From the sequence record SRR20825006_915: 56,531 nt of DNA; one strand, given 5' to 3'. Each line of letters opens with the position of its first letter. Position 1 is the stretch's first letter. A model generated the notes under the pieces. That model searched no databases. It was not told the DNA's origin and saw only the letters and a list, made by a program, of their open reading frames with translations. This document shows, in pieces, positions 2,824 to 33,317 of this stretch. A program made the position numbers and the translations under genes.

Positions 2824-3393
2824 ATGGATACATACATCATTGGGATTGGACAAAGAATTCGATCCATTAGAAAAGAAAAAGGAGTATATGCTAGCGAAAT
2901 CGCGAAGAGAGCAAATGTAAGTAACGGGTTGGTTTCTCGAATTGAAAACGGCCGAACAGTTCCTTCGGTACCTGTTTTGCTTTCCATTATTGAAGCATTA
3001 GAAGTACAACCAAGTGAATTTTTTGAAAGTATTAGCCAGTTTGCTCCGTTCAAGTATTTGAAAATCCCTGCCCAACAGCATCAAACTATTGAAAAAGAAG
3101 ACGAAGCGTCTGGTTTTAAATACGATCTAATTTTTAGTAAGCAGCTTCAAACTCTTGGTTTTGAGATCGTATTGTTAACTCTAGAACCAAATTGCCAACG
3201 TGAATGTGTTGAAACCGATGCTTTTGAGTTCAAATATATGCTTTCGGGAAAGTGTGAATACGTAATTGATGATGAAGTAGTGGAACTAAACGAGGGAGAG
3301 TCTATTTTCTTTAATGGCCGTTTACCACATGTTCCAAGAAATCCCAACATGGTACCTGCTACCATGTTGGTTTTCTATCTTTTTAATGAATAG
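2824..3393 (+). CDS. XRE-family HTH transcriptional regulator with C-terminal cupin sensor
   Basis: IRSIRKEKG...LVSRIENGRTVPS helix-turn-helix, followed by a cupin (EFKYMLSG...LNEGESIFFNGRLPH). Confidence 0.9.
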   Translation: MDTYIIGIGQRIRSIRKEKGVYASEIAKRANVSNGLVSRIENGRTVPSVPVLLSIIEALEVQPSEFFESISQFAPFKYLKIPAQQHQTIEKEDEASGFKYDLIFSKQLQTLGFEIVLLTLEPNCQRECVETDAFEFKYMLSGKCEYVIDDEVVELNEGESIFFNGRLPHVPRNPNMVPATMLVFYLFNE

Positions 3394-3402
3394 TACGTTT
3401 TA

Positions 3403-4521
3403 CTAAAGTTTAGCTAACTCTTCGAGTGCATAGCCAAATGAGAAGGTCATCCCTGCACCACCAAAGCCAGTTATAATTTTTACTTTATCCTCTGGTTGAG
3501 AAACAAACTCCGTTCCATTTGGATTTTTTGCATACACACCGTGCCATGTTTCTAATAAATCGATTTTCTTGGATTGCAAAAAAGTGTGCATGTAGTTCAT
3601 GATATAATCATTGATCTCTGTTTTGTCGAATGGATCAAAGCTGAGAGCATATTCATGAGAATCTCCTATAATGAGTTCATTAAATTCGTTTTGAGAAACC
3701 ATCACATGAATGCCCCATTTATCGAACTCTGGAGATTCTTTAGTAATACGATTTCGATACACTTCAAGAGAATCACATTGGGCAAAAGAAGCGTAATGCC
3801 TTAGAGTAAGTCCACCGCATAAAGTTGGTCCAAGAATAAATTGTTCGTCTTTGGATTTAGAACGCATCATTTGGAGCTTACTTTTTACAAGTCCACTTGT
3901 ATTAAAAACCTCAGGATATAGAGATTGAAAATCTGAACCTCCACAGATAAATACCTGCTCAGCCTTATACGAAGCTTTAGAAGTAATAAGCAATCCATCG
4001 TCTACGCTCAACACTTTTTCACCCAAATTCACCGTACACTTTGGATGTAGCGATAACCAATTGCAGATAGAATGAATGGCTCGTTTTGGGTTTACATTCA
4101 CTTCAGTGTCACTATAAAGACCACCTTTAAGATTCGTAGGATTTACATTGGGCGATTTTTGAAGAACCTTCGAAGCTGATAACAATTGAGTTCTATTTCC
4201 AAACTTAGTGTGGTATTCAGAAAGCACCGCATATTCATCTTCTTGATAAGCCAAATGAAGAGAGCCGTTTTCAAGAGCCCAGAAACCTGCTTTTTTTGAC
4301 ATATCCAGCCATTTTTCGCGACTTTTCACAGTCCTATCGTACAAATCCCCAGCTGGCTGACCAATTGGCCAAACCAAACCAAAGTTTCTAACTGAGGCTC
4401 CAACAGCCATTTCTTCTTGTTCAAATAGTTGAACAGAGTAGCCTTTTTCAACAGCAGCAACAGCGTGGGCTAAACCAATGATTCCGCCCCCAACAATTGC
4501 AATATCAATTTTATTCATCAT
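3403..4521 (-). CDS. FAD-dependent oxidoreductase, TIGR03364-like (aminophosphonate oxidase; DAO family)
   Basis: GGGIIG Rossmann motif, GASVRNFG, GLTLRHY, IIGDSHEY, WHGVY and GGAGMT motifs. It is clustered with a PhnX-like HAD, as is characteristic of this family. Confidence 0.85.
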   Translation of the reverse strand: MMNKIDIAIVGGGIIGLAHAVAAVEKGYSVQLFEQEEMAVGASVRNFGLVWPIGQPAGDLYDRTVKSREKWLDMSKKAGFWALENGSLHLAYQEDEYAVLSEYHTKFGNRTQLLSASKVLQKSPNVNPTNLKGGLYSDTEVNVNPKRAIHSICNWLSLHPKCTVNLGEKVLSVDDGLLITSKASYKAEQVFICGGSDFQSLYPEVFNTSGLVKSKLQMMRSKSKDEQFILGPTLCGGLTLRHYASFAQCDSLEVYRNRITKESPEFDKWGIHVMVSQNEFNELIIGDSHEYALSFDPFDKTEINDYIMNYMHTFLQSKKIDLLETWHGVYAKNPNGTEFVSQPEDKVKIITGFGGAGMTFSFGYALEELAKL

Positions 4522-4523
4522 TC

Positions 4524-5912
4524 TTATATAGTGTTTTTCATTGCTAAATCTGTGATTTCAAGAGCTTCATCAAAAGCTGATATCAGCATATCGATTTCTT
4601 CTTTGGTTACTATAAGTGGCGGAAAAATCCAGAGACCAAATTTATCACCAGGTACATAAATATTTTTTTCATCTAGTAGAAATTTCGACATCTGTTTAAC
4701 AGGTGTTTCAGAATATTTCTCAGATATCTTCCTGAATGATTCTTTGGTTTGTTGATTCTTAACCAATTCCATTGTCCACATCAAACCAACTCCTCGAACT
4801 TCCCCAACTGAAGCATGTTTTTCTTGAAGTTCGAGTAATTCTGATTCTAAATAAGCACCCATTTCTGTAGTATGCTCTAAAAGATTCTCTTGCTCAATAA
4901 CCTCTAAACTCGCTAAAGCAGCTGCTGCACCTAACGCATGGCCAGAGTAACTTTGTCCATGACCAAAGATATTCTCATCGAAAGAAGCAGCTACTTTTTC
5001 GCTAAAAATGGTTGCTGAAATGGGACAATATACACCCAGTGCTTTTCCCATGATTATGATATCCGGCTCAACATCATAATGCTCAATAGCTAGTAATTTG
5101 CCCGTTCTTCCCATTCCCGTCATCGTTTCATCAACAATCAGAAGTAGGTCAAACTCATCGCATATTTCGCGTAATCTTTTCATGTATGCTTTTGGAGCAG
5201 GAATCACTCCATTAGACCCAACAACAGGTTCTACTAAAACTGCAGCTACAAAGGCACTTCCGCCTTCCATTTCAATCATGTAGCGCATGTATTCAGCGGC
5301 CTTAAGTCCGTCGGGATCTTCACCAAATGGAGAACGGAATGGATATGCATCTGGTGCTTGGATAAAGCCAGGAACCGTTAGAGGCTCACTAAACCATTTT
5401 CTAGGGTCGCCACCAGCGGATAGCGCACCCATAGTTGCTCCGTGCCAAGCTCTATAACGTGATATAATTTTATACGGATATGGATATTGACGATTAGCTG
5501 CGTACTGATCAGTGCCGCCTTCCATAAGCTGGTTGTACTTATACATCCTAGCCGCTTTAATTGCAGCCTCAATAGAAGATGCCCCACTTTGACCAAACCA
5601 TACTTTTTTATTTGGTGAACCTGGCGTAATTGAGGCTAATTTCTGTGCAAGAAGCGCTGTTGGCTCCGTTGCAAAATCATCAGTTACATAAACTACTTTA
5701 TTGAGCTGTTCAATAATTGCTTGTTGTACTTTTGGATGATTAAAACCGAGGTTTACACATTCGTGAGCGCTTCGCAAATCAAAAATTTTGCGTCCATCTT
5801 TGGTGTGAATGTAGCATCCTTCGGTTTTATCAACAGCAATAGGGGAATAACTGGCCTGAGCAGACCAGCATTGCATCATGTACTTCCCTTGAACTTTGGA
5901 TATATCCATCAA
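4524..5912 (-). CDS. Class-III PLP-dependent aminotransferase (omega-amino/taurine-type fold)
   Basis: SRYRAWHGAT, VLVEPVVGSNG, DETMTGMGRTG, PDIIIMGK (PLP lysine), VRGVGLM and FPPL motifs. Confidence 0.85.
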   Translation of the reverse strand: MMDISKVQGKYMMQCWSAQASYSPIAVDKTEGCYIHTKDGRKIFDLRSAHECVNLGFNHPKVQQAIIEQLNKVVYVTDDFATEPTALLAQKLASITPGSPNKKVWFGQSGASSIEAAIKAARMYKYNQLMEGGTDQYAANRQYPYPYKIISRYRAWHGATMGALSAGGDPRKWFSEPLTVPGFIQAPDAYPFRSPFGEDPDGLKAAEYMRYMIEMEGGSAFVAAVLVEPVVGSNGVIPAPKAYMKRLREICDEFDLLLIVDETMTGMGRTGKLLAIEHYDVEPDIIIMGKALGVYCPISATIFSEKVAASFDENIFGHGQSYSGHALGAAAALASLEVIEQENLLEHTTEMGAYLESELLELQEKHASVGEVRGVGLMWTMELVKNQQTKESFRKISEKYSETPVKQMSKFLLDEKNIYVPGDKFGLWIFPPLIVTKEEIDMLISAFDEALEITDLAMKNTI

Positions 5913-5913
5913 C

Positions 5914-7821
5914 TTATTTGTGGCTTAACAAGAACGGTGCGATTGGCTTTTCTTCAAAACCAGGACCCTCGTATGTCAAAATTAGTCCTTCTCCTCCACC
6001 ACTTTCAAAAAACTCAACGCGTATTGGATGTTTTCCTTTTTCTAAGAGAACTTCCCCCGAAATTTTCTTCATTCCGTGTTCGCCATCATTATCTATAATA
6101 ATTTGATTGTGTAGAAATAGTTTACTGCCATCATCAGATGCGAGATTGAATTTATACCTGCCATCTTCTTTAACTTCTACGAATCCTTCATAAAGAATTA
6201 CGATATCATCCTCACGATGAGGAACGGCTTCTAGGGTAACAGATTTTGCTACGCCTTTAGAAACTGCTTTTAGTTTAGAGAAGTCTGGCAATTTTGTTAT
6301 GTCTTCCTCATAATAAGTATAAGCTAAACCTGATTTGGTACCCGAAGCTTTTACTGGATTCATTGGCATCAGTTTTCTTATATAAACTTTATTAACTCGG
6401 CTAGCTCTATTCTCTTTACTGTAAGCAATAACTTTAATTTCGCTAGTATTTTTAATAGTGAAAGGCTTAGTATACTTTTTTGAAGACTGATTTGGTTCGG
6501 ATCCGTCAGTAGTATAAAAAATGGTATTGTCTTCAAAGGCAGCTTCTAAAGCAATCTCAGTACTTTTTTCGAAAACACGACCTTCAGCTTTAATTTTTGG
6601 TGAAGGCGGCTGTAAAACAGATGCTTTGTTATTTACGCCTTCTGCTTTAGTAAGCTGAAAAGTATCAAAGGTTCTGCCTTCATGATCAATAGCTTTAAAG
6701 ATCACTGTTTTGTCATGAATTGCGAACGTACAGTAATGATGGCCAGTTTGAAGTTCAGCTGTAAACCAAGTTCTTGTTGGTGCAAAATCTTCCAAGCCAC
6801 CACCAGCTCCACCAGAGTTGATGTATACTACGCCATCTTCCTGATTTACCAAATTATCCTTAATAGGCCAAGTTCTTTCGTACATGTGAACATGTCCAAA
6901 TAGATCGAAATCAAGATTATATTTTTCGAAAAGTGGTACTAAGTATCTAGCGTGTGTTCCATAAGTTGAAGCTTCCTTAAAGGTATCACCACTATCATTT
7001 TCCTCTGATGTAAATGGAGGATGATGTTGAACTGCGATTTTCCATGTTGCATCCGATTTCGCCAACTCCCACTCTAACCAATTGTATTGCTCGGAACCTT
7101 CAGATATATCACGGTTCGAATCAATCATAAAAAATTGAGCATTACCATATTTGAATGTGTAGTAATATTCTGGCGCAGGATTCGCCATATACTGGTAGTA
7201 GTAATCAGAGTCATTTTCGTGATTTCCCAAAACAGTATATATTGGAAAACGGCTCATAGCTACGTGTCCAGGAGGGAAAAACTCGTCAGTCCAATCATCA
7301 AGATTGTTACCGTTATCTACAACATCGCCAGCTAAAACTGCAAAACTAGGGCGATCTTCCCACATACGTTGAGCAATTTTTTTCCACGCCCAAGGAGTGC
7401 TATTGTTACGCTGAGTATCTCCAATTAACGCGAACATAAATGCAGTACTATCATTTACTGCTGTTTTAAAAGAATACGTATTGCTTACAATTTCTTTGCC
7501 CGCAGATGTTTTAGAAACAATTCTCCAGAAATAATTGGTTTCCGTCTCTAAATCGTTTAAAACAACTTCATGCATAGTAGAAGATCCATCCACTGTTGCA
7601 TTCTGATTAAGAACTGGTTCACCCGAATTAAGAACTGCCTTCCCAAATTCAACTTTTGAAGTTGATTGCTCCTTCGTTTCCCAAAGTACAACAATGCTAC
7701 TTTTAGTAGCGAATTGTAAATAAGGCTTTACTATAAAATCGGTTTCGTTTTCTGTTGTTTGAGCTTGTACAAAAGGGGTTAACAAAAGTACAAGGCCAAT
7801 ACTAAATAGCCATTGCTTCAT
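5914..7821 (-). CDS. Exported metallophosphoesterase (PAP-like FN3 + calcineurin-like core + Fn3-associated + PA14)
   Basis: Signal peptide (FVQA). Metal motifs GDTQ, GDVVD, GNHE, HHP, GHVH. YTTDGSEP domain. PA14 signature SDDGSKL...DNDGEHG...GKHPIRVEFF. Confidence 0.85.
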   Translation of the reverse strand: MKQWLFSIGLVLLLTPFVQAQTTENETDFIVKPYLQFATKSSIVVLWETKEQSTSKVEFGKAVLNSGEPVLNQNATVDGSSTMHEVVLNDLETETNYFWRIVSKTSAGKEIVSNTYSFKTAVNDSTAFMFALIGDTQRNNSTPWAWKKIAQRMWEDRPSFAVLAGDVVDNGNNLDDWTDEFFPPGHVAMSRFPIYTVLGNHENDSDYYYQYMANPAPEYYYTFKYGNAQFFMIDSNRDISEGSEQYNWLEWELAKSDATWKIAVQHHPPFTSEENDSGDTFKEASTYGTHARYLVPLFEKYNLDFDLFGHVHMYERTWPIKDNLVNQEDGVVYINSGGAGGGLEDFAPTRTWFTAELQTGHHYCTFAIHDKTVIFKAIDHEGRTFDTFQLTKAEGVNNKASVLQPPSPKIKAEGRVFEKSTEIALEAAFEDNTIFYTTDGSEPNQSSKKYTKPFTIKNTSEIKVIAYSKENRASRVNKVYIRKLMPMNPVKASGTKSGLAYTYYEEDITKLPDFSKLKAVSKGVAKSVTLEAVPHREDDIVILYEGFVEVKEDGRYKFNLASDDGSKLFLHNQIIIDNDGEHGMKKISGEVLLEKGKHPIRVEFFESGGGEGLILTYEGPGFEEKPIAPFLLSHK

Positions 7822-7891
7822 GTTGATTTATTGCCTCTAAAAATTGATTGAATATTTCCGTAAAAAAGTTGTGTTGAATATCCCGTTTTTC

Positions 7892-7923
7892 ATGTTACCG
7901 TTACTTTAACTATGCGTTAACAT
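7892..7923 (+). promoter_or_regulatory. Copy 2 of the 32-bp Pho-box-like element
   Basis: ATGTTACCGTTACTTTAACTATGCGTTAACAT, with TTACC/TTAAC/TTAAC at 7895, 7906 and 7917 (11-bp period). Confidence 0.65.
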
Positions 7924-7934
7924 TCCAATCTAAT

Positions 7935-7963
7935 ATTGAGCATTTGTAAACCTATTGCTCAAT
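7935..7963. promoter_or_regulatory. Perfect 8-bp inverted repeat, candidate operator
   Basis: ATTGAGCA-N13-TGCTCAAT in the divergent promoter region. Confidence 0.35.
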
Positions 7964-8021
7964 CTGAATATTTACATAAACTATTGTTATTAAACATATA
8001 ATGAAATTTTTATAAATTTCT

Positions 8022-8053
8022 ATGTTACCAATTCTTTAAGACTTTATTAACAT
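8022..8053 (+). promoter_or_regulatory. Copy 3 of the 32-bp Pho-box-like element
   Basis: ATGTTACCAATTCTTTAAGACTTTATTAACAT, with TTACC/TTAAG/TTAAC at 8025, 8036 and 8047. It lies 130 bp from copy 2. Confidence 0.65.
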
Positions 8054-8122
8054 ATACGAAATCTATCTTTCTTTGCATGCCCATCGTTTATCTTTGGCTT
8101 AAAATTCAAACCGAGTAGATTT

Positions 8123-8806
8123 ATGAAGCCAAGATTAGTTGTATTTGATATTGCAGGAACCACCCTTAACGATACTGCAAATAGTGTGAACGATAGTTTT
8201 AGAGGGGCGTTAAAAATCCATGGCATTTCAGCCACACAAGAAGAGATTAATGCCGTAATGGGTTACAAAAAGAAGACGGCCATACAAACCATTTTGACAA
8301 GTTTGCCAAATCAAGAAAGTTCGCCTGAGCTAGTAGAACAGATACATGATTCATTTTTGGAACTTATTAACGAATATTACAGAAGCTCGCCTGACATTGC
8401 AGAAATTGAAGGCGCCTCTCAGCTCTTTGGTGAATTAAAAGGAGTCGGAATCAAGGTTGCTCTAGACACCGGTTTTAGCCGCTCTACCACTGATATTATT
8501 TTGGAGAGAACTGGTTGGCTACAAAATGGATTAATTGATGCATCCAAAGCGAGTGATGAAGTAGAAGATGGTCGTCCGCATCCTTTCATGATTCAAGCAT
8601 TAATGGCGGATTTAAATATTTCTAAGTCTTCGAGTATTGTAAAAGTTGGTGATACTCCCTCTGATCTAATGGAAGGCGAAAATGCGAAATGTGGCCTTAC
8701 GGTTGGCGTTCTTTATGGCACACATACTCGTAGCCAATTAAAAGACTTTCACCATGATTATTTGATAGAAGACATTACTGAGTTAAAGACTTTAATTGGG
8801 TTATAA
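8123..8806 (+). CDS. Phosphonatase-like HAD hydrolase (PhnX-like, TIGR03351-type)
   Basis: DIAGT (DxAGT rather than DxDGT), cap motif MGYKK, TGF, GRPHP (Arg in place of the HAD Lys) and KVGDT. Confidence 0.85.
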   Translation: MKPRLVVFDIAGTTLNDTANSVNDSFRGALKIHGISATQEEINAVMGYKKKTAIQTILTSLPNQESSPELVEQIHDSFLELINEYYRSSPDIAEIEGASQLFGELKGVGIKVALDTGFSRSTTDIILERTGWLQNGLIDASKASDEVEDGRPHPFMIQALMADLNISKSSSIVKVGDTPSDLMEGENAKCGLTVGVLYGTHTRSQLKDFHHDYLIEDITELKTLIGL

Positions 8807-8808
8807 CA

Positions 8809-10161
8809 ATGTCTCATTCAGTTGATTTGCACTCCGAGGGTGACTTAAACATCAGCCCTCGTAGACAAGATTGGTCAAAGAGAAATATCGCGCCGCAAAC
8901 GCAGGCTGTTTTAGATGAAGACTCCAAATATTTTCTACATCAATCTCTTTCGACCCCTTGTTTAAATGTCCTTTCACATTGTGAAGGCTCATATATTGTC
9001 GACCAATCAGGTAAAAAATTACTCGACTTCCATGGTAATTATATTCATCAAGTTGGCTTCGCAAATCCAAAAGTGATTGAGGCGATTACTCAACAAATGA
9101 GTACGCTCAGTTTTTGTACTCGTCGTTATACAAATTCGACGGCCATTGCTCTCGCAAAAAAACTATCTGAATTGAGTTCTGGTAGTTTAAACCGTGTCCT
9201 TTTTGCCCCAGGTGGAGCTGAAGCTATCGGGATGGCGCTTAAAGTAGCTAGAATGGCAACTGGGAAGTTCAAAACCATCTCTATGTGGGATTCTTTCCAC
9301 GGCGCTACACTCGACGCTATTTCTATTGGTGGCGAAGCAATTTTCAGAAATAATGCAGGTCCTTTATTGCCAGGAACCGAGCACGTTCCGTTTCCTTACC
9401 CTGGCGAAACTCCTTTCGGAAAATCTGTTTCTGATAACGCCGATGCTTGCGCTAGCTACTTAGAATATGTTCTTGAAAAAGAAGGTGATGTTGGTGCTGT
9501 TATTGCAGAAACCATTCGTTCCTCCCTTTCTATACCTCCAAAAGAATATTGGCAAAGAATTCGAAAAGCGTGCGATAAACACGGGGCACTTCTCATATTA
9601 GATGAAATCCCACATGCTCTTGGAAGAACTGGAAAGATGTTCACGTACCAACATTATGGCATTGAGCCAGACATGGTTGTAATTGGAAAAGGTTTAGGCG
9701 GAGGAATTTTTCCATTAGCGGCACTCATTGCCAAAGAAGAATTGAATGAAGCTATAAAAGAACGAGCTATTGGACATTTTACGCACGAGAAAAGCCCTGT
9801 AGCTTGTGCGGCAGCGTTGGCAACCATTCAAATTATTGAAGATGAACATTTACTTATTAGAACCGAGGAACTTGGTAAAAGCGCACTTTTTCAACTCGAG
9901 AAGCTAAAAACTAAGTATCCATTGATAAGTGATGTGCGTGGTTTAGGCCTCATGCTAGGCATTGAACTTCGTCATCCTGAGACTGGCGAAAAAGCAAAGG
10001 TTGAAGCCGACACTATTATGTACCGAGCGCTAGAACTTGGTCTCAATTTTAAAGTATCGATGGGTAGTACGCTTACACTTACTCCTCCGCTTACTGTAAC
10101 CCAAGGTGAATTAGAAACTGCGTTTTCCATCATCAATCAATGTTTAATGGAGGTTCAATGA
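8809..10161 (+). CDS. pbfA: (R)-1-hydroxy-2-aminoethylphosphonate ammonia-lyase-like class-III PLP enzyme
   Basis: N-terminal SEGDLN, FLHQSLSTPCL, DFHGN, SMWDSFHGA, DEIP..LGRTG, GKGLGGG and GHFTHEKSP, recognised as PbfA-type. It lies 2 bp after the PhnX-like gene. Confidence 0.85.
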   Translation: MSHSVDLHSEGDLNISPRRQDWSKRNIAPQTQAVLDEDSKYFLHQSLSTPCLNVLSHCEGSYIVDQSGKKLLDFHGNYIHQVGFANPKVIEAITQQMSTLSFCTRRYTNSTAIALAKKLSELSSGSLNRVLFAPGGAEAIGMALKVARMATGKFKTISMWDSFHGATLDAISIGGEAIFRNNAGPLLPGTEHVPFPYPGETPFGKSVSDNADACASYLEYVLEKEGDVGAVIAETIRSSLSIPPKEYWQRIRKACDKHGALLILDEIPHALGRTGKMFTYQHYGIEPDMVVIGKGLGGGIFPLAALIAKEELNEAIKERAIGHFTHEKSPVACAAALATIQIIEDEHLLIRTEELGKSALFQLEKLKTKYPLISDVRGLGLMLGIELRHPETGEKAKVEADTIMYRALELGLNFKVSMGSTLTLTPPLTVTQGELETAFSIINQCLMEVQ

Positions 10162-13108: not shown

Positions 13109-13121
13109 CTAGTGTTATGAG

Positions 13122-13162
13122 AGAACTCCTACCTTTTTAGAAGGTTTGGGGTTCTTTTTTTT
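13122..13162 (+). terminator. Rho-independent terminator
   Basis: AGAACTCC-T-ACCTT / AAGGT-TT-GGGGTTCT stem followed by a T run, just after the stop at 13108. Confidence 0.75.
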
Positions 13163-13351
13163 ACCCACCAACATCACTACGGCAAGTCATTTTTTACAGT
13201 TTACAACTTCCTTTGCTAAACTAGTATTTGGCACAGAATTTTTGCTTGATTTAAATGCTTTCGATTACTTTTTTCTAACATCCAATAATTAATACCTAAA
13301 TTCTTTATTCTCTTACGCAATAGTATCGTAATTTGCCAAATACAACATACA

Positions 13352-21348: not shown

Positions 21349-21364
21349 ATAAACGGAGTTTTGG

Positions 21365-21405
21365 AAAAAATAAAAAGCCGACACCTTGCTGGGTGCCGGC
21401 TTTAT
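21365..21405 (-). terminator. Rho-independent terminator inside the operon
   Basis: The minus strand reads AAAGCCGGCACC-CAGCAA-GGTGTCGGCTTT-TTATTTTTT, directly after the 21419 stop. Confidence 0.8.
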
Positions 21406-25489: not shown

Positions 25490-25508
25490 TTGTTTTTTTA
25501 TTGATGTT

Positions 25509-26537
25509 TTAGAGGTAGATACTCATTGAAATTCGGTGGGCTTTGCCTAATACGCCCCAATCTGACCAGGAATAGTCGAAGGTGAAGCGCTCTTGGCTAC
25601 TTAGCATATACTGTAGCCCACCACCCAGTGTTAAGCCATTAATTTGATCTCTTTCAAATAGGTTTTGATAACCAGCTCGGAAAAACACTAGTTTTTTGAA
25701 ACCGAATTCTGTTCCCAAATTCATACTTTCTGTAGAACCCGTTGGGTGGATTAGATCCAATGCTGTAGTAAAGTCAAAATCCTTTAGTTGTTTTTGGTAG
25801 GCTAAACCGAATCTAAAAATCTGAGGAAGTGGATATTCTTCCGTGTCGTAAGTGATAGGAATATTTGTAACCCCTTGGTTGTTAATATCAGGGTCAATTA
25901 CATCGGTAAGATTTTTACCCGACATTTGAATATCATCACCAAAATTTGAGATACTTGTTCCTAGAGTTAAGCCATCAACAGGTGTGTGGTAGAGCACTCC
26001 AAAGTCGAATGCCACTCCTGTTGCACTTTCACTCCAAATACGTTGGTTTACATATTTCGCTGTTACACCAAAAGAGAATGACTCTATAAGTTGTGAGGAA
26101 AGAGAAATATTTACGGCAAAATCTCTCGCATCATAGCGTTCACCGGTTTTACTTCCATCATAATTTCTCACATCTTGCTCAGGTACGCCTAAGGTTGTAA
26201 AACTCCCCGCGAGTACCGATTTGATAGCCGGTAATGGAACAGAAGCTGAAGCAAAGTTGAATGACGTGCTAGCTAGCCATTCAGTATTACTGAATGATGC
26301 GCTAACACCATCTATAGAAGCTAGACCTGCGGGGTTCCAGTAAATCATGTCGCCATAACCACTTTGTGCCGTATAAGCTCCCCCCATCGCTTCTGCTCTC
26401 GCATTCACGCTTATTTCTAGGAAAGCAGCTGCTACCGTTCCTTTGTTAGATACATTTTTTACGAAGCCAACTTGAGCCTTTGCAGAAACACTGCAAAGGA
26501 TTAGTAATAAGACTATTTGAGATAATTTTTTATACAT
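25509..26537 (-). CDS. PorV/PorQ-family outer-membrane beta-barrel (UPF0164)
   Basis: FLEISVNARAEAMGGA, YWNPAGLA, LPQIFRFG and FRAGY motifs, ending in an amphipathic strand. Confidence 0.85.
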   Translation of the reverse strand: MYKKLSQIVLLLILCSVSAKAQVGFVKNVSNKGTVAAAFLEISVNARAEAMGGAYTAQSGYGDMIYWNPAGLASIDGVSASFSNTEWLASTSFNFASASVPLPAIKSVLAGSFTTLGVPEQDVRNYDGSKTGERYDARDFAVNISLSSQLIESFSFGVTAKYVNQRIWSESATGVAFDFGVLYHTPVDGLTLGTSISNFGDDIQMSGKNLTDVIDPDINNQGVTNIPITYDTEEYPLPQIFRFGLAYQKQLKDFDFTTALDLIHPTGSTESMNLGTEFGFKKLVFFRAGYQNLFERDQINGLTLGGGLQYMLSSQERFTFDYSWSDWGVLGKAHRISMSIYL

Positions 26538-26542
26538 TTTTT

Positions 26543-29500
26543 CTATTTGATAAGTGCAAATCTTCCAATTTTTTCGCCAATCCCAGGAGCTTTCACATGG
26601 TAGATGTACACTCCAAATGCTACATCTAAACCATCATCACTTTTTAAATCCCAAGATTCTAAGCTTTGATACTCGCTACTGTTGTGCTCTATGGTTTTTA
26701 CAAGCCGTCCGCTCATAGTGAAAACCTGAATAGTGCATTGTTGAGGTAAATTTCTAAAATCGATTCTACGCTCTCCTCGTCCTGGTAAAGAAGTGTTGCG
26801 AGGCTCAAGTGGGTTAACTACGATATACGGATCTGGAGCTACGTAAATACTGTCCAAAGATGACTTCTGAATTTGCTCTTCAACAATATTTCCAGTCACT
26901 TTAAAACGGTATACATCGTCTCTGTTGAAAGGCTTCGTGGTTTCCATTAGGAGTTTGTCGCCAGAGATGGGCATCTCTTTGCTAAACAACTCGTCTAGCT
27001 CTTCTTTGTATTCCTTCGGAGAGTAGAAAGATGCTATTGCCGCGTTTACGCCGGGTGTGTTTTTAAGAGAATCTTCAACTTCTGCATACCAAGAGTTTAT
27101 CTCATCTAAAAAATCGATTATCTGTCGCCCTTTTAAATCTGCACCGTATTTTCGGGTACCGATATCGCGAACTTGATAGATTGCCAAGGAGTCATATAAT
27201 TCATTTACTTGACTTTTTATGCCATCCAATATTTCAGAATTATTCTCTGAAACACTGAAATTAAATCGCCAGGTAGAGTTCGCATATACTAACCCAAAGG
27301 GTGTATTAACTCCACCTACTTTAACATCAATTTCATCTCCAGGACTTAGTACACCTTTTACTGTATCCTGAGGGAAAATTGGTGTTGCCGCTTCTTTTAA
27401 ACTAAAAGGAAGTTGTTTAGCAGCATTTGGGTAGGTTACATCCCATATACTATAGTTGGTCGCAATTCTTGATGATACTGAAATTGAACTTGAAGTATCT
27501 GCATGAAGCTCACTTACTCTTATTTCGTAATCTCTAGGAACAGCTGTATTCGAGTTGTCCATAGCATTTACGTTAGCAGATAAGCTTGGTTTTCTTGTCC
27601 TTTGAGAATTTGCTTGCCAAGCCACTGATTCTACTTCTGGCTCTAATGGATTATCGATGGCAATTTTCATTCCGTCGTATATCCTTGCATTTAGTATTGG
27701 TGAATCAAAAATAGCAGCGCCCTGATCCGCAGGATTGCTAACCGCGAGAACTTCACCTGTAGTCGTATTCTTGAAAGTAAAGCCTGTGGTTTTTCCAAAA
27801 TCTAGATAAAGCGAATCCATATTCTTATAAGATTCATCATCCGTAAATGAAATCTCATACTCATATCCTTTAGAGTTTGCTGAGTCTGGTATTAGGAAGT
27901 CTACTTGAATATTCCCTGTAGATTTTCCTGAAATTTTTACAATCTCATCATTCTCGATAGTTGGCGGCACATAACCTGTAGCTCGAGCCTGAGGGACCAC
28001 AACTGCAGTGTTTCTATCGATATTCACTGGCCGTTCAAAAGCATCCACTTCAATTATTTTTGAACTTTCTGAAGGAGATATACTCGCCAACGAAGAATAC
28101 TCTGAAATGCCATCCGCGTAGAAGTTTGGTGCATAACCTTGATCTACAGAAGCAACTGCGTAATAATAGGTGCGTCCGTTATCAACATCTTCATCTATGT
28201 AACGATACTCTAATCCAGAATCGGTACCCATATCGTAGCTAATCCCAAAACTACCAATTGGGATTGGATGCGCACCTGTTAGTCCGTTCTTTTTATCAAA
28301 TTGCGCAACGGCTTCCCATAAAAGAGGATTTCCGAAGGCGTCAGTTATGGTTTTTATATCGTTAAATTCAGGATCTGTACTGCGGTAAATTTTGTACATC
28401 TCGAAATCGAAGCCATAAATAGGATCTCTTGAAATCTCTGCACTTTCATCCCAAACTAAAATCACTTTGTTGTCGTCCGGTACTGCGGTTAAGAAAGGGC
28501 GACGTGGTGGTTTTGCAAAATCGTAATCTGCATCGTAGATGTTTTGCATAGTACGTTTGTTACGAAGCATATCATCAAAATCGTTACCACAAAAGAATGC
28601 GATTGAAAAGCGTTGTGATTGATTTTTATTAATAGCTACAGAGCCCGAGCTGTATGCGTAGATTATATCAGCTGTTTCTGTTGGAATGATGAAATCTGAT
28701 TCATCTGAAGGTTGTATATAATCCTGCCAGAACAATTCGTCATCATCGATATCTCTATCAAAATCGGATGGAGTTCTGATTACCATATTGGTCAAGCCAA
28801 TCTGATCAATCTCATCGTTATCCGTGAACTCAAAGTTCGGCTCTCCTCTATCAGGAATACCGTTTGCTTCAGAACCATCAGGGTCAGGTCCTGGATAATT
28901 TTCGTCTTCCGGGCCTACACCATCCGAGCCTTTGTCGTCATTAATTGGCTCAATATCTAGTACACCATTGCCATTGGTGTCTTCGTTTGGATCTAGGATG
29001 AAATTGTTATTAGCATCCTCATTATCGTATTGGCCATTGCCATCAACATCAACCCAAATTCTCCAATCGCCGTCGTTATCAATCCCATCGTTTCGGCTTT
29101 CATCTACCATACCGTCGGCATCGTTATCGATACCATCATTTGAAATCCCAGGGCTTTCAAGGAAGCCAACGCCAGCATACCCAACTTTGAAGCCATTTTG
29201 AACAAGGTTATTCTTATGCCATTGATAAGTGATGTCATCCTTGGTATCAAAAAGTGCGTTATTACTGCCAGTGCTTCCACCGATATCATAATCCACCAAC
29301 ATGGCGATAATCGAGTTATTGATTTCATTACGGCTGACGTTCTTTACATCGAAGGTGGTAACAAAAATATCTTCAGCAAGTACGCTTGTCCATTGATATT
29401 GACGAGCTTCAATTTCAATCCCAATACCTCTTCTTCCGCCATCTTCCCAATCGCGGTTATCTGGCTGACCAGTAGCAGGATCAATAAACGGGTAGTAAGC

Positions 29501-30412
29501 AAATTCGTCATTATCTCGGTCATCTGAGATGTAATAAGATTCCTGATCCGCTCTAATAAATGACCCGTAAGCACCATTCCAGCGCCCAGCTCTAACTCCT
29601 GCGCGGGTTTCACCTACTTGCCGGTCATCACCTGGATATGATTGGGCTGGCCAAAACTCGGGCCATGTTTCAACAACATTCGATTGTGCGTTAAACTCGA
29701 CTTTATTTTCGAGTACCAAATCTAATTCGTTGTTGTTGTTTAGATCTTCGCCGGCGTCAAGTTCACCGTTTCCATTTAAGTCTTCACTTAATCCACCAAC
29801 AAAGTAAAAACCAGCACTTTCTAGTTGCTGGCGATCAGTGGAGTTATCATTAAGTTTATTTGTTGACGATTGATCACCGTACATATTGTAATAGCCAGGA
29901 ACAGGAGTAAAATGATATTTATGGCTACCATCAGGATCAGTATCTCCACCACTTCTGTTATAACTTTCTGATACAATAACGTGATTTTGGCCATCATCAT
30001 CTTGAACTTCAGCACCAACCATATAACTCATGGTATGCCCGTACTCAACACCAGAACCTTTTGGCCAGATAATTCTACTCGGAGATACAAAACTACTCCA
30101 ATATCCTGCTGAGATATTTACGTTAGTTATGTAAGGAACCTGAATTAGGTTACCAGTATGTAACCCTCCACGGGTAAAGTTCTTTAGAGAAAGATTTCCC
30201 GCTCTTTTGGCTTGGCTCTTATTTTTGGCAGAGTTTTTCTCCCAGCTCTCAATGCCTTTTTCATACTTTTCTTGAAGCTTTTCGGCTTCGCGCTCACTTT
30301 TACTTCGCTCCTTAGTTTGGGCATTAACCCAAACTGGAAGCTGTATAAAAAGTAGGAGCAACAGTATTTTATGTAGAGTAAATTTTGATTTTTTCACAAG
30401 ATTTGAGGTCAT
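26543..30412 (-). CDS. Large exported hypothetical protein with Ca-binding DxNxNGxxD loops, FN3-like region and CTD-like C-terminus
   Basis: Signal peptide, repeated EDLNGNGELD / DGIDNDxDG / EDTNGNGVLD loops, NGRTYYYAV, and C-terminal VAPDPY...IFTMSG-like...WDL...GVYIYHV...FALIK. Confidence 0.65.
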   Translation of the reverse strand: MTSNLVKKSKFTLHKILLLLLFIQLPVWVNAQTKERSKSEREAEKLQEKYEKGIESWEKNSAKNKSQAKRAGNLSLKNFTRGGLHTGNLIQVPYITNVNISAGYWSSFVSPSRIIWPKGSGVEYGHTMSYMVGAEVQDDDGQNHVIVSESYNRSGGDTDPDGSHKYHFTPVPGYYNMYGDQSSTNKLNDNSTDRQQLESAGFYFVGGLSEDLNGNGELDAGEDLNNNNELDLVLENKVEFNAQSNVVETWPEFWPAQSYPGDDRQVGETRAGVRAGRWNGAYGSFIRADQESYYISDDRDNDEFAYYPFIDPATGQPDNRDWEDGGRRGIGIEIEARQYQWTSVLAEDIFVTTFDVKNVSRNEINNSIIAMLVDYDIGGSTGSNNALFDTKDDITYQWHKNNLVQNGFKVGYAGVGFLESPGISNDGIDNDADGMVDESRNDGIDNDGDWRIWVDVDGNGQYDNEDANNNFILDPNEDTNGNGVLDIEPINDDKGSDGVGPEDENYPGPDPDGSEANGIPDRGEPNFEFTDNDEIDQIGLTNMVIRTPSDFDRDIDDDELFWQDYIQPSDESDFIIPTETADIIYAYSSGSVAINKNQSQRFSIAFFCGNDFDDMLRNKRTMQNIYDADYDFAKPPRRPFLTAVPDDNKVILVWDESAEISRDPIYGFDFEMYKIYRSTDPEFNDIKTITDAFGNPLLWEAVAQFDKKNGLTGAHPIPIGSFGISYDMGTDSGLEYRYIDEDVDNGRTYYYAVASVDQGYAPNFYADGISEYSSLASISPSESSKIIEVDAFERPVNIDRNTAVVVPQARATGYVPPTIENDEIVKISGKSTGNIQVDFLIPDSANSKGYEYEISFTDDESYKNMDSLYLDFGKTTGFTFKNTTTGEVLAVSNPADQGAAIFDSPILNARIYDGMKIAIDNPLEPEVESVAWQANSQRTRKPSLSANVNAMDNSNTAVPRDYEIRVSELHADTSSSISVSSRIATNYSIWDVTYPNAAKQLPFSLKEAATPIFPQDTVKGVLSPGDEIDVKVGGVNTPFGLVYANSTWRFNFSVSENNSEILDGIKSQVNELYDSLAIYQVRDIGTRKYGADLKGRQIIDFLDEINSWYAEVEDSLKNTPGVNAAIASFYSPKEYKEELDELFSKEMPISGDKLLMETTKPFNRDDVYRFKVTGNIVEEQIQKSSLDSIYVAPDPYIVVNPLEPRNTSLPGRGERRIDFRNLPQQCTIQVFTMSGRLVKTIEHNSSEYQSLESWDLKSDDGLDVAFGVYIYHVKAPGIGEKIGRFALIK

Positions 30413-30416
30413 TCTA

Positions 30417-33317
30417 TTAAAATTTCATCTGTAATGAGAGTAGCACTTGGCGTGGAGCCGAGTACCAAGTTGGACGTGCGTTGTCTTCAGCTTCAGAAAA
30501 CAATCCTACATAGTTGAGTACCGCAGAGCGCTCTAGCTGATCCTCTGGTAAGCGTACAATCTGGTCAGCACTTCCCGATATGCTATTTACTGTACTTTCA
30601 TTTAGATGGTTAAGCAGATTATTTACTTGTAGCCGAAGCATAAGCTGTGTTTTACCAACATTGAGTGCTTTTTCAGCAGTAAAATCGAGCGTTAAGAGAA
30701 GTGGTTTCTTCTCAGTGTTGTCGAAATAACTTTCGGGAAACTCTTTATCTGGATCGATAAAAGCGGGTGTATATGGCTGTCCTGAAGCTATCTGCTGTAC
30801 AAAGCCAACATTCCAGTTTCCAGGAATTCCAATTGTCATATACGCATTTGCCGTTAGCGTTTGATCCCAATTCAGTGGAATAATTCGACGGTCAACAACA
30901 ACATCACCAACTTCGCCGCGGCGGCCAGCAATAAGCACATCGGCAACACTATTTGGGTTGGATGAACTTCCTTGTACATCTTGGTAGGTTATATCTATAC
31001 CTGCTCCATTCAGCAAGCCTCTTGAGTTTGTAAAGAGTGCAATAGTTCCTCCTTTTATGAGGCCATAATCTCTATTCACGGTTCTGTTATAAAGAATACC
31101 ATCAGAGGTGGCTAACACTTCTCTACCAAGTAGATTCCGAACGTTTTTGTAGAACAGGTTGATGTCGATTCCGATAAAATCAGACACCTGTTGTTGCAGA
31201 CCTAATTCGTACTTAATTGTTCGTTCAGGAATCAAGTCTGGATTTCCAACAGTAGTTCCTTCCAACCTTCCTTGGTTAGTATTCGCATCAACAGGGTTTT
31301 GATACAACTGGCTATATGCTGGCATTTGAGTAAAGTGCCCATAAGCAATCCGGAAGGCGCCTCTTGTAGAAATTGGATACGATATTCCAACTCTTGGACT
31401 TAAATACATCTTAGCCTTTGAATCCTCTAAGTTGCTAGCGTCGCCAACCAAAGCCGCTTGTGTACCTGTGTTTACGATATATTTTTCTCTGGTGTCGTAA
31501 TACTCAAAGCGTAATCCGGCTTTAACTACTAAGTTAGAACCCAACTCGAGCTTGTCTTGTGCAAAAGCTGCAAACTCTATAGGAGATTGTTCAAACTCTG
31601 TAGTCTCATTAGTAAGATTCTTAAGGACATCTCTTTCAAGATTTATTGCCTGAAGAGCCGCAAGGTATTCATCAAAATATTCGTAACCACCTGCATTATT
31701 TGGACGTACAACGCCAACAGGTTCCTTTTGAGCATCGCCAGATAAGTACCAACCAATGCCTTCATCTCTTGAGTTAAATCGATTTGAACGAAACTGATAG
31801 CCGGCTTTAATTTCGTTGAAGTAGTTAATCTGCCAAGTAAAATCACCTGAGCTAATAAACTGATCTTCCTCGAAGTACGATCGTCCTAATTCCGTCCCAC
31901 CAAAATAAAATCCAGTAGTTTGATCGGATCCAGAGAAATAAGAGTATCGGCTATCATTAAAATCGGAGTAAGCCATCGAATTATTTCTCGATAACTTATA
32001 CGAGCCTCTCAAATTCAGAACAAAGTTGTTACTAATAGTTTGCTTAATGGAGAATATATTAGTTAACGAATAGCTCTTTGATACTCCTCGTCCATCTGGA
32101 GAGTAACGCTTGCTATCGCTGTAACCTTGACCTTCGCTACTATTATAAATAGCACTATATGTAAGCTTCGTTCGCGTAGATGGTCTATAAACAAACTTTG
32201 GATTTACAGATAACGATTTACGCCAATCCATTGCCACCACTTTGCCGTCACCACTAGCAAATGTAATTGCTTCTCCATTGCTATCTAAGATTTTCTCCCC
32301 TGATGGAGTTTTAGCTGTATCTAGGGCAATGAGCTGTGCATTATCTGGTGCATATACATTTCTATACCAAAATTGATAGGCATCAATTTTTTGCCCATCA
32401 GAAACAGAAAAAATATTCCGTCCTTTTAAATAACCTTCTCGATCTTCGTATCGGGTATTTAGGAAAAAGCCTAATTTTTCAGAATTTTTTCCGATAGGGC
32501 CACTAAGCGTAACAGATAAATCTTTGGATTGAGCTGGGTCTAGTATATTTCCTTGAAGGAATAAATCATCACCTCCAGAGTAGTAACCTCCCGTTCTAAA
32601 CTGGAAGCTTGTTTCCAGTTTCTGAGATGGGTCGCGTGTAGTTACATTTACAACACCAGACTGCGCCCCTCCAACTTCAGCATCAAAGGTTCCTGTTAGC
32701 ACTTGCAGTTCTTGTACAGAACCTATTTCAACATCAATGGTATTACCACCTGATTGCGAATAGATATCCTGAACAGGAATTCCATCTACTATATAAGCGA
32801 CCTCACGAGTTCGACCTCCTCTAAAGCTAAATCCGCCATCCGTTGCAACCACACCCGGTTGAAATTTCACCAAATCACTTACTTCCAGAACAGGGAGGGC
32901 ATCGATTGTTTCTTTTGAAAGAATGGAAACCGATGAAGTCTGGTCAACTTTTACGATGGGCTTTTCGGCTCTAATGATAAGTTCTTCGCCCTGAAAAACT
33001 TCCGAAGCCATAGAAACATTTATAGAAGTTGTTTGGCCAGTGTTTACTTCTACGTGCTCTATAGTTTGTGCAGAAAACCCAATAAATGAGAATCGCATCT
33101 CATATATTCCAGCAGGTACACTCAGAAGTACATAACGACCTTCGCCATCGGTACTAACTCCTTTTTGTATACTTTCTACATATACCGTTATTCCTGCTAG
33201 AGGCTCCCCTGTTTCTGTTTCTGTAACTACTCCAGAAATCTTGCCGTCTTGAGCATTTGCTGTTGCCGAGAAGAGGCTAAACAACAAACAAAAGTTTACT
33301 AATGATAAAATTTTCAC
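30417..33317 (-). CDS. TonB-dependent receptor with N-terminal carboxypeptidase-regulatory-like domain
   Basis: GKISGVV...TGEPL, FRGGRTREVAYIVDGIP, GTFDAEVG, SPRVGISYP and GNPDLIPERT motifs, C-terminal Phe, GTG start. Confidence 0.9.
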   Translation of the reverse strand: MKILSLVNFCLLFSLFSATANAQDGKISGVVTETETGEPLAGITVYVESIQKGVSTDGEGRYVLLSVPAGIYEMRFSFIGFSAQTIEHVEVNTGQTTSINVSMASEVFQGEELIIRAEKPIVKVDQTSSVSILSKETIDALPVLEVSDLVKFQPGVVATDGGFSFRGGRTREVAYIVDGIPVQDIYSQSGGNTIDVEIGSVQELQVLTGTFDAEVGGAQSGVVNVTTRDPSQKLETSFQFRTGGYYSGGDDLFLQGNILDPAQSKDLSVTLSGPIGKNSEKLGFFLNTRYEDREGYLKGRNIFSVSDGQKIDAYQFWYRNVYAPDNAQLIALDTAKTPSGEKILDSNGEAITFASGDGKVVAMDWRKSLSVNPKFVYRPSTRTKLTYSAIYNSSEGQGYSDSKRYSPDGRGVSKSYSLTNIFSIKQTISNNFVLNLRGSYKLSRNNSMAYSDFNDSRYSYFSGSDQTTGFYFGGTELGRSYFEEDQFISSGDFTWQINYFNEIKAGYQFRSNRFNSRDEGIGWYLSGDAQKEPVGVVRPNNAGGYEYFDEYLAALQAINLERDVLKNLTNETTEFEQSPIEFAAFAQDKLELGSNLVVKAGLRFEYYDTREKYIVNTGTQAALVGDASNLEDSKAKMYLSPRVGISYPISTRGAFRIAYGHFTQMPAYSQLYQNPVDANTNQGRLEGTTVGNPDLIPERTIKYELGLQQQVSDFIGIDINLFYKNVRNLLGREVLATSDGILYNRTVNRDYGLIKGGTIALFTNSRGLLNGAGIDITYQDVQGSSSNPNSVADVLIAGRRGEVGDVVVDRRIIPLNWDQTLTANAYMTIGIPGNWNVGFVQQIASGQPYTPAFIDPDKEFPESYFDNTEKKPLLLTLDFTAEKALNVGKTQLMLRLQVNNLLNHLNESTVNSISGSADQIVRLPEDQLERSAVLNYVGLFSEAEDNARPTWYSAPRQVLLSLQMKF

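Follow-up and report, generated by a model that had tools for sequence, protein, structure and literature searches.

The closest described counterparts of the gene island reported here, which lies in the DNA stretch SRR20825006_915 (56,531 nucleotides; this whole stretch is called the window below), are the Pus loci of Flavobacterium johnsoniae and other Bacteroidota, defined by Lidbury et al. 2021 (PMC8115612) and, according to the same paper, induced by phosphate depletion. PusCD1/2 are needed for growth on phosphatidylinositol, Pus1 consists of PusCD with a PI-PLC (pf16670) and a calcineurin-like enzyme resembling glycosylinositol phosphoceramide phospholipase C (PLC), and pusCD-like pairs often adjoin aminophosphonate genes (Connolly et al. 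2026 preprint, 10.64898/2026.09.03.749221).

The second described counterpart is the hydrolytic breakdown of 2-aminoethylphosphonate (AEP). PbfD-type enzymes, which are the TIGR03364 family, oxidise N-methyl-AEP and AEP; PbfD2 takes AEP almost as well, and a route of PbfD2 and PhnX runs without PhnW (PMC10590968). PbfA is an ammonia-lyase that converts R-hydroxy-AEP (R-HAEP) to phosphonoacetaldehyde (PMC8154272).

The island is an accessory element of ~30.5 kb from a Balneolaceae-like, marine-type bacterium. Its 17 genes form three tightly packed transcription units (A, B and C; Table 1), plus a regulator and a kinase gene. Units A and B make up the aminophosphonate (Pbf/PhnX) half, and unit C encodes a TonB-dependent receptor and partners of the type IX secretion system (T9SS). 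We read the island as a SusD-less, Pus-type organophosphorus utilisation locus that serves, at least in part, aminophosphonates esterified to lipids or glycans, through capture, import and cleavage of the C–P bond, and put the probability of this reading at roughly 55%.

Conservation of the island in relatives

Genome G001, whose island is 95% identical to that in the window, served as the reference. A set of 61 relatives was drawn round it, and gene arrangement was followed by tblastn of all island proteins. DUF5690, the family of the predicted inner-membrane transporter, was found in 8 of the 61, of which five are among the 23 genomes of the genus, two represent other genera of the same family and one comes from a different family. 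Seven of these eight genomes, and not one of the remaining 53, have a full-length orthologue (60–99% identity) of the 1289-aa protein encoded in unit C; beyond these, the best match was a partial one at 46%.

The two genes were on one contig, 15–18 kb apart, wherever the assembly permitted a judgement, namely in G001, G002, G009, G021, G032 and G051. All 17 genes were collinear in G021, with the same flanks, and G051, which belongs to another family, was collinear without the PI-PLC and kinase genes. The island was rearranged in G032, where the PhnX-like and regulator genes stood divergently beside the TonB receptor gene, and PbfA, DUF5690, the purple acid phosphatase (PAP)-like esterase, the second class-III aminotransferase (AT3) and PbfD were found at the far end of the operon; the arrangement in G063 was the same. 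(G221 gave figures identical to those of G063, and both were counted once.) G024 was fragmented, consistent with linkage.

In a class-wide sample of 301 genomes, DUF5690 was present in 17. G296 was collinear as far as the contig end, with a 68% orthologue of the 1289-aa protein on a different contig, and the orthologue in G298 was split across two contigs. An Ignavibacteria metagenome-assembled genome (MAG), G062, had a single co-directional gene string that led from a TonB receptor through a 46% orthologue of the 1289-aa protein, PorV-like and SurA-like proteins, a PAP-like esterase with Laminin_G_3, a T9SS cargo protein, DUF5690, two class-V aminotransferases, a HAD protein, AT3 and PbfA to a LacI regulator. 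In G249, of the same family as the host, a SusC/SusD pair was surrounded by esterases (a PHP protein, two NPP proteins with PA14, a PI-PLC, three Metallophos proteins and one GDPD) and stood beside DUF5690 and PbfA.

The earlier note on this DNA had suggested checking in relatives, Ignavibacteria among them, whether the TonB/T9SS operon goes together with phn/pbf genes, and this is the case: in seven of the eight DUF5690 genomes of the set, with the rearranged G032 among them, in G063 and in the G062 string. This conservation makes the island more than a chance adjacency. A chance meeting of two unrelated modules in a single lineage might be suspected, given that the halves are transcribed separately and a genus-specific kinase gene stands between them, but other genera, another family and the Ignavibacteria MAG all keep the linkage despite rearrangement, and we consider this explanation very improbable. 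Since the linkage survives two different rearrangements and a deep split, selection for co-inheritance or co-expression is hard to avoid.

Proteins of the island and the proposed route

The FAD oxidoreductase scored 405.7 bits with TIGR03364, against a cut-off of 285.1. By this family score it is PbfD-type and a candidate for the step from AEP or N-methyl-AEP to phosphonoacetaldehyde. PbfA likewise exceeded the cut-off of its model, with 666.5 bits against 525. The PhnX-like HAD hydrolase scored 178.4 bits with TIGR03351 ("phosphonatase-like"; cut-off 218.9) and 111.6 bits with TIGR01422 (cut-off 220), and its closest PDB matches were phosphonoacetaldehyde hydrolases. In the alignment, the nucleophile Asp of FD(I/W)AGTT was kept, as was a Lys, which we take to be the Schiff-base Lys, at a position that distinguishes entry 2iof from 2ioh; Cys22 and His56, presumably further active-site positions of PhnX, are both Ala in the island protein. 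In G001, which is nearly identical, matches to the PhnW model stayed below its cut-off (best score 55.6 vs 400.8 bits). The C–P half is of a known pathway type (PbfD, PhnX and PbfA).

AT3 is not PbfA (the PbfA model gave 272 bits vs the cut-off of 525). It keeps the pyridoxal phosphate Lys in a DIIIMGK motif, and its gene stays with the cluster in G021, G032, G051, G063, G296 and G062. Its second-best PDB match was taurine:2-oxoglutarate aminotransferase (6jix). Taurine is the sulfonate analogue of AEP, and we therefore propose AT3 as a candidate AEP-type transaminase.

The AlphaFold2 model of the DUF5690 protein, from a 61-sequence alignment, was a 12-helix major facilitator superfamily (MFS) fold with a pLDDT of 93.8. 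Foldseek placed SLC37A4/G6PT1 and SLC37A2 at ranks 1–9 and GlpT at rank 25, and a sequence search of the PDB matched no solved structure at E ≤ 1. The GlpT/SLC37 antiporters have paired phosphate-binding arginines, and in DUF5690 Arg44 and Arg255 were invariant among the 61 sequences and Arg252 was at least 90% conserved. A literature search for DUF5690 listed one unrelated paper. In Pseudomonas putida, AEP uptake by the permease AepP, which is related to GlpT, is proven (PMC8316502). From the model, DUF5690 is a candidate aminophosphonate importer.

A neighbourhood census matched 600 contig stretches, of which 578 were confirmed as DUF5690 relatives and the best 80 loci, mostly from Bacteroidota, were taken; the 822 open reading frames (ORFs) within 7 kb of DUF5690 were clustered, and one representative per cluster was scanned with Pfam. 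The closest named record among the best 80 was from a Balneolaceae bacterium MAG (66% identity). PhnX-like proteins were the most frequent neighbours (27/80 loci), followed by a 287-aa PHP protein and SusC-like receptors (23 each), PbfD and XRE/cupin regulators (22 each), SusD-like proteins (19), an HD-domain protein (14), PbfA/AT3 (12) and class-V aminotransferases (10). Homologues of NPP with PA14 stood beside DUF5690 in 13 of the 80 loci. In Bacteroidota, frequent immediate neighbours were the 287-aa PHP protein (L064:9028-9891) and a 191-aa HD protein (L091:9369-9944), possibly PhnZ-like; the window has neither.

One relative, G005, carries a 70%-identical DUF5690 in a locus without Pbf or PhnX genes (L055, G005:C1:1704001-1724000). 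Its neighbours encode a LacI protein, a GFO/IDH/MocA oxidoreductase, a MalK-like ATPase, a sugar-type ABC importer, a T9SS cargo protein with CBM_4_9 and a paralogous TonB/giant-protein/PorV cassette, and no PbfA orthologue was found in G005 (best 36%). The gene is either a remnant, or the substrate range of DUF5690 is broader.

Export signals were assessed by inspecting the N-termini by eye. All five phosphoesterases have a hydrophobic leader, and the PI-PLC, PHP and SurA-like proteins have a lipobox-like Cys. TIGR04183, the T9SS C-terminal domain, scored 43.8 bits on the 682-aa PAP-like esterase, 62.7 on the 1356-aa protein and a weak 25.4 on the 1289-aa protein, so that the domain was clear only on the first two. 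The PAP-like and NPP-type esterases tagged with PA14 are probably periplasmic, as they have a signal peptide and no T9SS tail.

The PAP-like esterase of unit A matched purple acid phosphatases in the PDB and has the motifs GDTQ, GNHE and GHVH; both metallophosphoesterases keep the GD.., GNH(D/E) and GH.H motifs. The PHP protein keeps the HxH motif (HTH), and a comparison with PDB sequences gave no match. When the NPP domain was aligned to Xanthomonas NPP (2gsn), the metal-ligand Asp/His motifs were kept and Ser occupied the nucleophile position. (The open frame for NPP starts with TTG 11354, overlapping the DUF5690 gene by 115 nt; ATG 11465 is the more likely start, because the signal peptide begins there.) Judged from these motifs, the active sites of the PhnX-like protein, NPP, both metallophosphoesterases, PHP and AT3 look intact.

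The T9SS-secreted esterase also matched purple acid phosphatases and, at residues 68–213, a levanase carbohydrate-binding module; by this match its N-terminal module is lectin-like. The presence of glycan-binding-type modules on phosphoesterases, in a locus without glycosidases, would fit stripping of head groups from glycoconjugates or glycolipids. The animal NPP family includes alkaline sphingomyelinase and lysophospholipase C, and by analogy, a PLC-type cut of ceramide-AEP by the NPP enzyme is chemically plausible; as the substrate is a phosphonate monoester, such a cut would release free AEP directly. A look through PMC7431532 for hydrolysis of ceramide-AEP by sphingomyelinase gave only an entry in the reference list.

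In the outer-membrane cassette, the TonB receptor has an N-terminal CarboxypepD_reg domain, followed by Plug and barrel, and the SusC/RagA NCBIfam model was not among its matches at E ≤ 0.001. The gene right after it encodes the 1289-aa protein, which belongs to no Pfam family and whose atlas clusters are all unnamed. The AlphaFold2 model of residues 110–1289 was mostly beta-sandwich, with a pLDDT of only 66.8, and Foldseek gave TM-scores below 0.1 except for a local match to PorZ at 24% identity. The model thus allows the protein to be described only as a beta-sandwich array with a T9SS-like C-terminal domain, and it is a candidate surface binding partner of the receptor.

The PorV-like barrel scored 177.9 bits with NF033709 (cut-off 90), and its family profile matched F. 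johnsoniae PorV (6h3i) at E 2.6e-16. When this barrel was modeled, without alignments, in complex with the C-terminal 150 residues of the 1289-aa protein, the score was 0.93, and the best of three controls had 0.01; of 78 solved complexes, 51 come up to this mark, as do 2 of 108 mismatched pairs. Contact agreement between runs was at least 89%, and the pLDDT of the partner was at least 69. PorV structures are solved and match the PorV-like family, so the result may reflect likeness to known structures. The barrel is predicted to tether the 1289-aa protein by its C-terminal domain.

Homologues of the 1289-aa protein, members of a multi-copy family, were found in 46 of the 61 relatives. We surveyed the flanks of 30 loci of this family, 7 orthologous and 23 paralogous (L018-L047, relatives G001-G061). 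The C-terminus of a TonB receptor was directly upstream in 22, a PorV-like gene directly downstream in 27, and both in 20, some of the misses being due to short flanks. Throughout the order, genomes carry several copies of this triad, in which a TonB receptor is joined by a PorV/PorQ paralogue and a beta-rich protein of 1060–1340 aa whose C-terminal domain of 140 aa is conserved, and the triad looks like a lineage-wide alternative to SusCD. Because the paralogous cassette in G005 bears the CBM_4_9 cargo and sugar ABC genes, the cassette appears to be a generic uptake architecture whose substrate is set by the attached enzymes.

The SurA-like protein is kept in the cassette at 27–46% identity. 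The 1356-aa cargo protein matched no PDB sequence, and its N-terminal 1100 aa have no assigned family. Its gene contains direct repeats at 21860–23352 with a spacing of ~800 nt (108 nt at 72% identity, plus shorter ones), and from this spacing the N-terminal part may consist of repeated modules of ~267 aa.

The predicted compartments fit a PUL-like system of capture, import and cleavage: T9SS cargo and TonB receptor lie on the outside, the PA14 esterases lack a T9SS tail, the importer is of the MFS type, and the Pbf/PhnX enzymes are cytoplasmic. In the proposed route, the T9SS would bring three proteins to the cell surface: the lectin-tagged PAP-like esterase, the 1356-aa protein with PPC domains and the 1289-aa beta-sandwich protein. 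The C-terminal domain of the latter would dock on the adjacent PorV-like barrel, and the docked assembly would take the role that SusD and surface binding proteins have in polysaccharide utilisation loci (PULs). The TonB receptor would import fragments bearing head groups, and the periplasmic PA14-tagged PAP-like and NPP-type esterases would cut a single P–O ester, with the PI-PLC and PHP lipoproteins adding to periplasmic cutting in some lineages. From phosphonates, the cut would yield AEP, N-methyl-AEP or hydroxy-AEP, and ordinary phospholipids would give phosphate or inositol phosphate. The DUF5690 transporter would then move the free aminophosphonate into the cytoplasm, where PbfD (oxidative deamination), AT3 (transamination) and PbfA (ammonia elimination from R-hydroxy-AEP) would converge on phosphonoacetaldehyde, which the PhnX-like hydrolase would split into acetaldehyde and phosphate.

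A more far-reaching version can be put forward tentatively. The island would cover the whole way from the outside into the cytoplasm and be dedicated to aminophosphonates in esterified form (phosphonosphingolipids, phosphonoglycans). Its TonB uptake cassette would belong to a SusD-independent class not described before, in which the receptor is joined by a SurA-like chaperone and a giant beta-sandwich protein that the T9SS delivers and that stays permanently docked on a PorV paralogue of its own; this class of cassette would be used generically in place of SusCD in Balneolales, Ignavibacteria and probably other lineages of the Fibrobacterota–Chlorobiota–Bacteroidota group. DUF5690 would be the missing Bacteroidota-type aminophosphonate permease, and AT3 a new recurrent "Pbf" enzyme.

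Regulation, competing explanations and gene inventory

Two 32-nt palindromes, ATGTTAcc-N16-ttAACAT, are found at 7892–7923 and 8022–8053, where units A and B, beginning with the PAP and PhnX-like genes, share a divergent promoter. The expected count was 0.10; none of 100 shuffles reached two, and there are no other copies in the window. Two copies are kept in G001 and one in G021, and none was found in the more distant G032 and G051. The palindromes are a candidate operator, perhaps bound by the XRE/cupin regulator. A search for an operator common to the Pbf and TonB promoters, or conserved across G032, G051 and G063, gave only AT-rich chance palindromes, none conserved. In G032 and G063, the regulator gene adjoins the TonB receptor gene divergently, and the promoter region that the regulator shares with the TonB operon hints at common control there. 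A sigma-70 scan gave 22 promoter-like sites, fewer than the shuffle mean of 44, and terminator patterns gave no useful operon borders.

Several points weigh against a locus for esterified aminophosphonates. The sole significant operator-like motif is in the Pbf divergent promoter and none is found upstream of the TonB operon, so that for this window common regulation is at most a possibility. DUF5690 may not be specific for aminophosphonates, because the G005 gene sits in a LacI/ABC sugar-type locus without a PbfA orthologue. The PhnX-like protein falls below both NCBIfam cut-offs, and in three DUF5690 genomes of one genus (G249, G113 and G228), an orthologue of the 1289-aa protein was not found at E ≤ 1e-100. 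The PI-PLC, PHP and kinase genes are not conserved across syntenic relatives: PI-PLC orthologues were found in G021, G032, G296 and G249 and in none of the examined stretches of G051 and G024, PHP orthologues in G021, G051 and G249 and not in G032, and a kinase orthologue in G021 only, G032, G051 and G296 having none. The kinase is a genus-specific accessory, and PHP and PI-PLC are variable members. The co-occurrence counts overstate independence, as the related genomes are kin, and one ancestral fusion followed by vertical inheritance would explain much of the linkage pattern; the rearranged and Ignavibacteria versions argue against such a fusion as the whole cause.

Finally, the right half may target ordinary phospholipids, because its PI-PLC and calcineurin-like pair is exactly the content of Pus1, which serves the use of phosphatidylinositol, and every esterase family of the island is, by its assignment, generic. 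Taken further, the TonB/T9SS operon might scavenge phosphate esters in general, from ordinary phospho(inositol)lipids, sphingolipids or nucleic acids, with the Pbf genes as mere neighbours that use free AEP entering through unspecific outer-membrane passage, so that the linkage would reflect only a shared role in phosphorus scavenging. The need of F. johnsoniae for Pus1, with the same pair, during growth on phosphatidylinositol, the generic esterase families and the lack of a shared operator upstream of both halves all speak for this explanation. Yet among the 61 relatives, orthologues of the cassette occurred only in genomes with DUF5690/Pbf genes (7/7); the cassette lies between Pbf/PhnX genes in G032 and G063 and in one gene string with them in G062; and the PI-PLC is missing from several syntenic versions, whereas the PAP-like and NPP esterases stay with the Pbf genes. 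We therefore regard general scavenging as rather unlikely, and prefer the reading in which the esterases and the cassette serve esterified aminophosphonates.

The island might also support nitrogen or carbon catabolism of aminophosphonates and related amines, induced by substrate and insensitive to phosphate, in which case its description as an organic-phosphorus island would be a misnomer. Its local regulator is of the XRE/cupin type rather than Pho, and such regulators recur near DUF5690, as the census showed; it encodes three enzymes that release ammonia or amines; and phosphate-insensitive mineralisation of AEP for nitrogen is known in other bacteria (PMC8316502). Five phosphoesterases and a phosphonatase-like hydrolase nevertheless indicate release of phosphorus, and comparable Pus loci are induced by phosphate depletion (PMC8115612), which makes this explanation improbable.

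The window contains 51 ORFs of at least 100 aa. Pfam was scanned on 41 ORFs of this size across the whole window, and NCBIfam models were used on the island proteins too. The inventory in the earlier note agrees with the ORF list and both sets of families, by which all 17 genes stand at the expected places with the expected folds (Table 1). They also bear out its count of five phosphoesterases with four different folds (the calcineurin-like fold twice; NPP, PI-PLC and PHP once each), whose export is predicted from the leaders described above, and its three deaminating-type enzymes. In line with it, none of the 41 ORFs matched a glycoside hydrolase, SusD, PhnD/PhnCDE, PhnW or other class-V aminotransferase, or C–P lyase family. 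The regulator gene is convergent to unit A, and the kinase gene begins 243 nt past the end of unit B.

Table 1. Transcription units and genes of the island (window positions)
Feature	Position	Strand	Content or basis of assignment
Unit A	7821 to 3403	minus	PAP-like esterase, class-III aminotransferase, TIGR03364 FAD oxidoreductase
Unit B	8123 to 13108	plus	PhnX-like HAD, PbfA, DUF5690, NPP-type phosphodiesterase with PA14
Unit C	33317 to 15214	minus	Eight genes, spacing -4 to 34 nt, TonB receptor first, then 1289-aa protein, PorV/PorQ barrel, 1356-aa cargo, SurA-like, PAP-like T9SS cargo, PI-PLC-C1, PHP
XRE-type HTH + cupin regulator	2824-3393	+	Pfam HTH_3/HTH_31 + Cupin_2
PbfD-type FAD amine oxidoreductase	3403-4521	-	TIGR03364
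Second class-III aminotransferase (AT3)	4524-5912	-	Aminotran_3, 311 bits
PAP-like metallophosphoesterase	5914-7821	-	Pur_ac_phosph_N + Metallophos + CHB_HEX_C/Fn3_assoc + PA14
PhnX-like HAD hydrolase	8123-8806	+	TIGR03351 / TIGR01422 below cut-off; PDB matches
PbfA	8809-10161	+	NF049939
DUF5690 MFS-fold predicted inner-membrane transporter	10140-11468	+	PF18943, 552.7 bits
NPP-type phosphodiesterase	11465-13108 (ORF from 11354)	+	Phosphodiest + CHB_HEX_C + PA14
Sensor histidine kinase, periplasmic NMT1/THI5-like binding domain	13352-15196	+	NMT1 + HisKA + HATPase
CehA/McbA-family PHP metallohydrolase lipoprotein	15214-16686	-	NF038032, 227 bits; no Pfam match
Ca-dependent PI-PLC-C1 phospholipase C lipoprotein	16702-17790	-	PF16670, 401 bits
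T9SS-secreted PAP-like esterase, 682 aa	17787-19835	-	Pur_ac_phosph_N + Metallophos + Por_Secre_tail
SurA-like/PPIase lipoprotein, chaperone candidate	19837-21384	-	Weak Rotamase_2/SurA_N_3
1356-aa T9SS cargo	21419-25489	-	Three PPC domains + T9SS C-terminal domain
PorV/PorQ-family outer-membrane beta-barrel	25509-26537	-	NF033709, 177.9 bits
1289-aa secreted beta-sandwich-array protein	26543-30412	-	No Pfam family
TonB-dependent receptor	30417-33317	-	CarboxypepD_reg + Plug + TonB barrel

The flanking genes are unrelated to the island (YgjP and LTXXQ on the left, PxpABC and Nramp on the right), and in five complete congeners the homologues of YgjP and PxpC are hundreds of kb apart. Outside the island, the window also encodes a glycosyltransferase with a tRNA-queuosine mannosyltransferase N-terminal domain (PF12038, 211 bits), at 39227–40336, and, at 43201–45723, an Amidase_3 + Big_5 protein with a T9SS sorting domain.

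Comparison with described systems

To our knowledge, the characterised phosphonate pathways begin with free monomers. For reaching ester-bound phosphonates, the island supplies candidates at each missing step, in a lineage with complete single-contig genomes: the two PA14 esterases of the Pbf operons, the T9SS-secreted esterase with its lectin module, a TonB receptor of its own and an MFS importer. It would extend the Pus concept beyond SusCD-bearing Bacteroidota. The triad of receptor, giant protein and PorV-like barrel may be a general alternative to SusD, and two family-level leads on function emerge: DUF5690 as a candidate aminophosphonate transporter, and the second class-III aminotransferase that recurs in AEP clusters. 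In titles and abstract openings, we found no publication describing the cassette or bacterial release of AEP from phosphonolipids; the published Zangelmi/Lidbury cluster lists may include Balneolaceae-type clusters.

The earlier note had taken the island for a PUL-like system that releases AEP-type head groups from macromolecules, imports them and cleaves the C–P bond, and had named it as the best candidate for an undescribed system. Synteny and compartment logic fit the capture-import-cleave part, but the concept and the type of C–P pathway are known, and "undescribed" was too strong, because Pus loci, sometimes with phosphonate genes, are already in print (Lidbury et al. 2021; Connolly et al. 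2026).

Compared to the hydrolytic AEP clusters (PhnW/PhnX, PbfA, PbfD; Zangelmi et al. 2021, 2023), the island is alike in having PbfA and PbfD above the model cut-offs and a candidate PhnX-type HAD, and its PhnW-less arrangement of PbfD and PhnX is as in Mariniblastus fucicola (PMC10590968). It differs in the conserved second class-III aminotransferase, in having DUF5690 instead of an ABC system or AepP, in the two PA14-tagged esterases within its operons, and in a PhnX-like protein that scores under the model cut-offs. Among transporters, the DUF5690 model resembles the organophosphate:phosphate antiporter family of the MFS (GlpT, SLC37A4/G6PT, AepP), its nearest solved folds being SLC37A4, SLC37A2 and GlpT, whereas the protein has no sequence-level match to a solved MFS structure and its G005 orthologue is in a sugar-type context.

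The likeness to SusCD-type PULs lies in surface capture, TonB-powered import through a receptor with CarboxypepD_reg, periplasmic trimming and inner-membrane uptake. In contrast to PULs, the island has neither SusD nor carbohydrate-active enzymes and has phosphoesterases instead, to which carbohydrate-binding-type modules (PA14, levanase-CBM-like) are fused. As in PorV-cargo recognition by the T9SS (F. johnsoniae PorV, 6h3i, 8gl* entries), a PorV/PorQ-family barrel adjoins proteins with T9SS-type C-terminal domains, but here a dedicated PorV paralogue lies inside each TonB cassette (downstream in 27 of the 30 loci). That each cassette encodes its own paralogue suggests that the 1289-aa protein is permanently tethered rather than transiently shuttled.

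The Pus loci are the closest match. Like them, the island clusters a TonB-dependent outer-membrane importer with phosphodiesterases and phosphomonoesterases; it has the PI-PLC-C1 and calcineurin-like pair of Pus1 (PF16670, 401 bits, and two Metallophos proteins), plus NPP and PHP. Co-localisation of Pus loci with phosphonate-degrading genes and inner-membrane transporters was noted by their own authors. G249 bridges the two, with the same esterases, DUF5690 and PbfA round a true SusC/SusD pair, and by analogy this version would point to functional equivalence of the island to Pus. The differences are that the island has no SusD-like lipoprotein and has instead the 1289-aa protein, the PorV-like barrel, two T9SS cargo proteins and a SurA-like lipoprotein; that Pus loci have an extracytoplasmic function (ECF) sigma/anti-sigma pair where the island has an XRE/cupin regulator and a kinase; and that phosphatidylinositol is the only proven Pus substrate so far, while the phosphonate substrate of the island is a prediction from its genes. 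Set beside the systems already in print, the island differs in four ways: its SusD-less, T9SS/PorV-linked surface module, its Pbf set with a second aminotransferase, its DUF5690 transporter, and its lineage.

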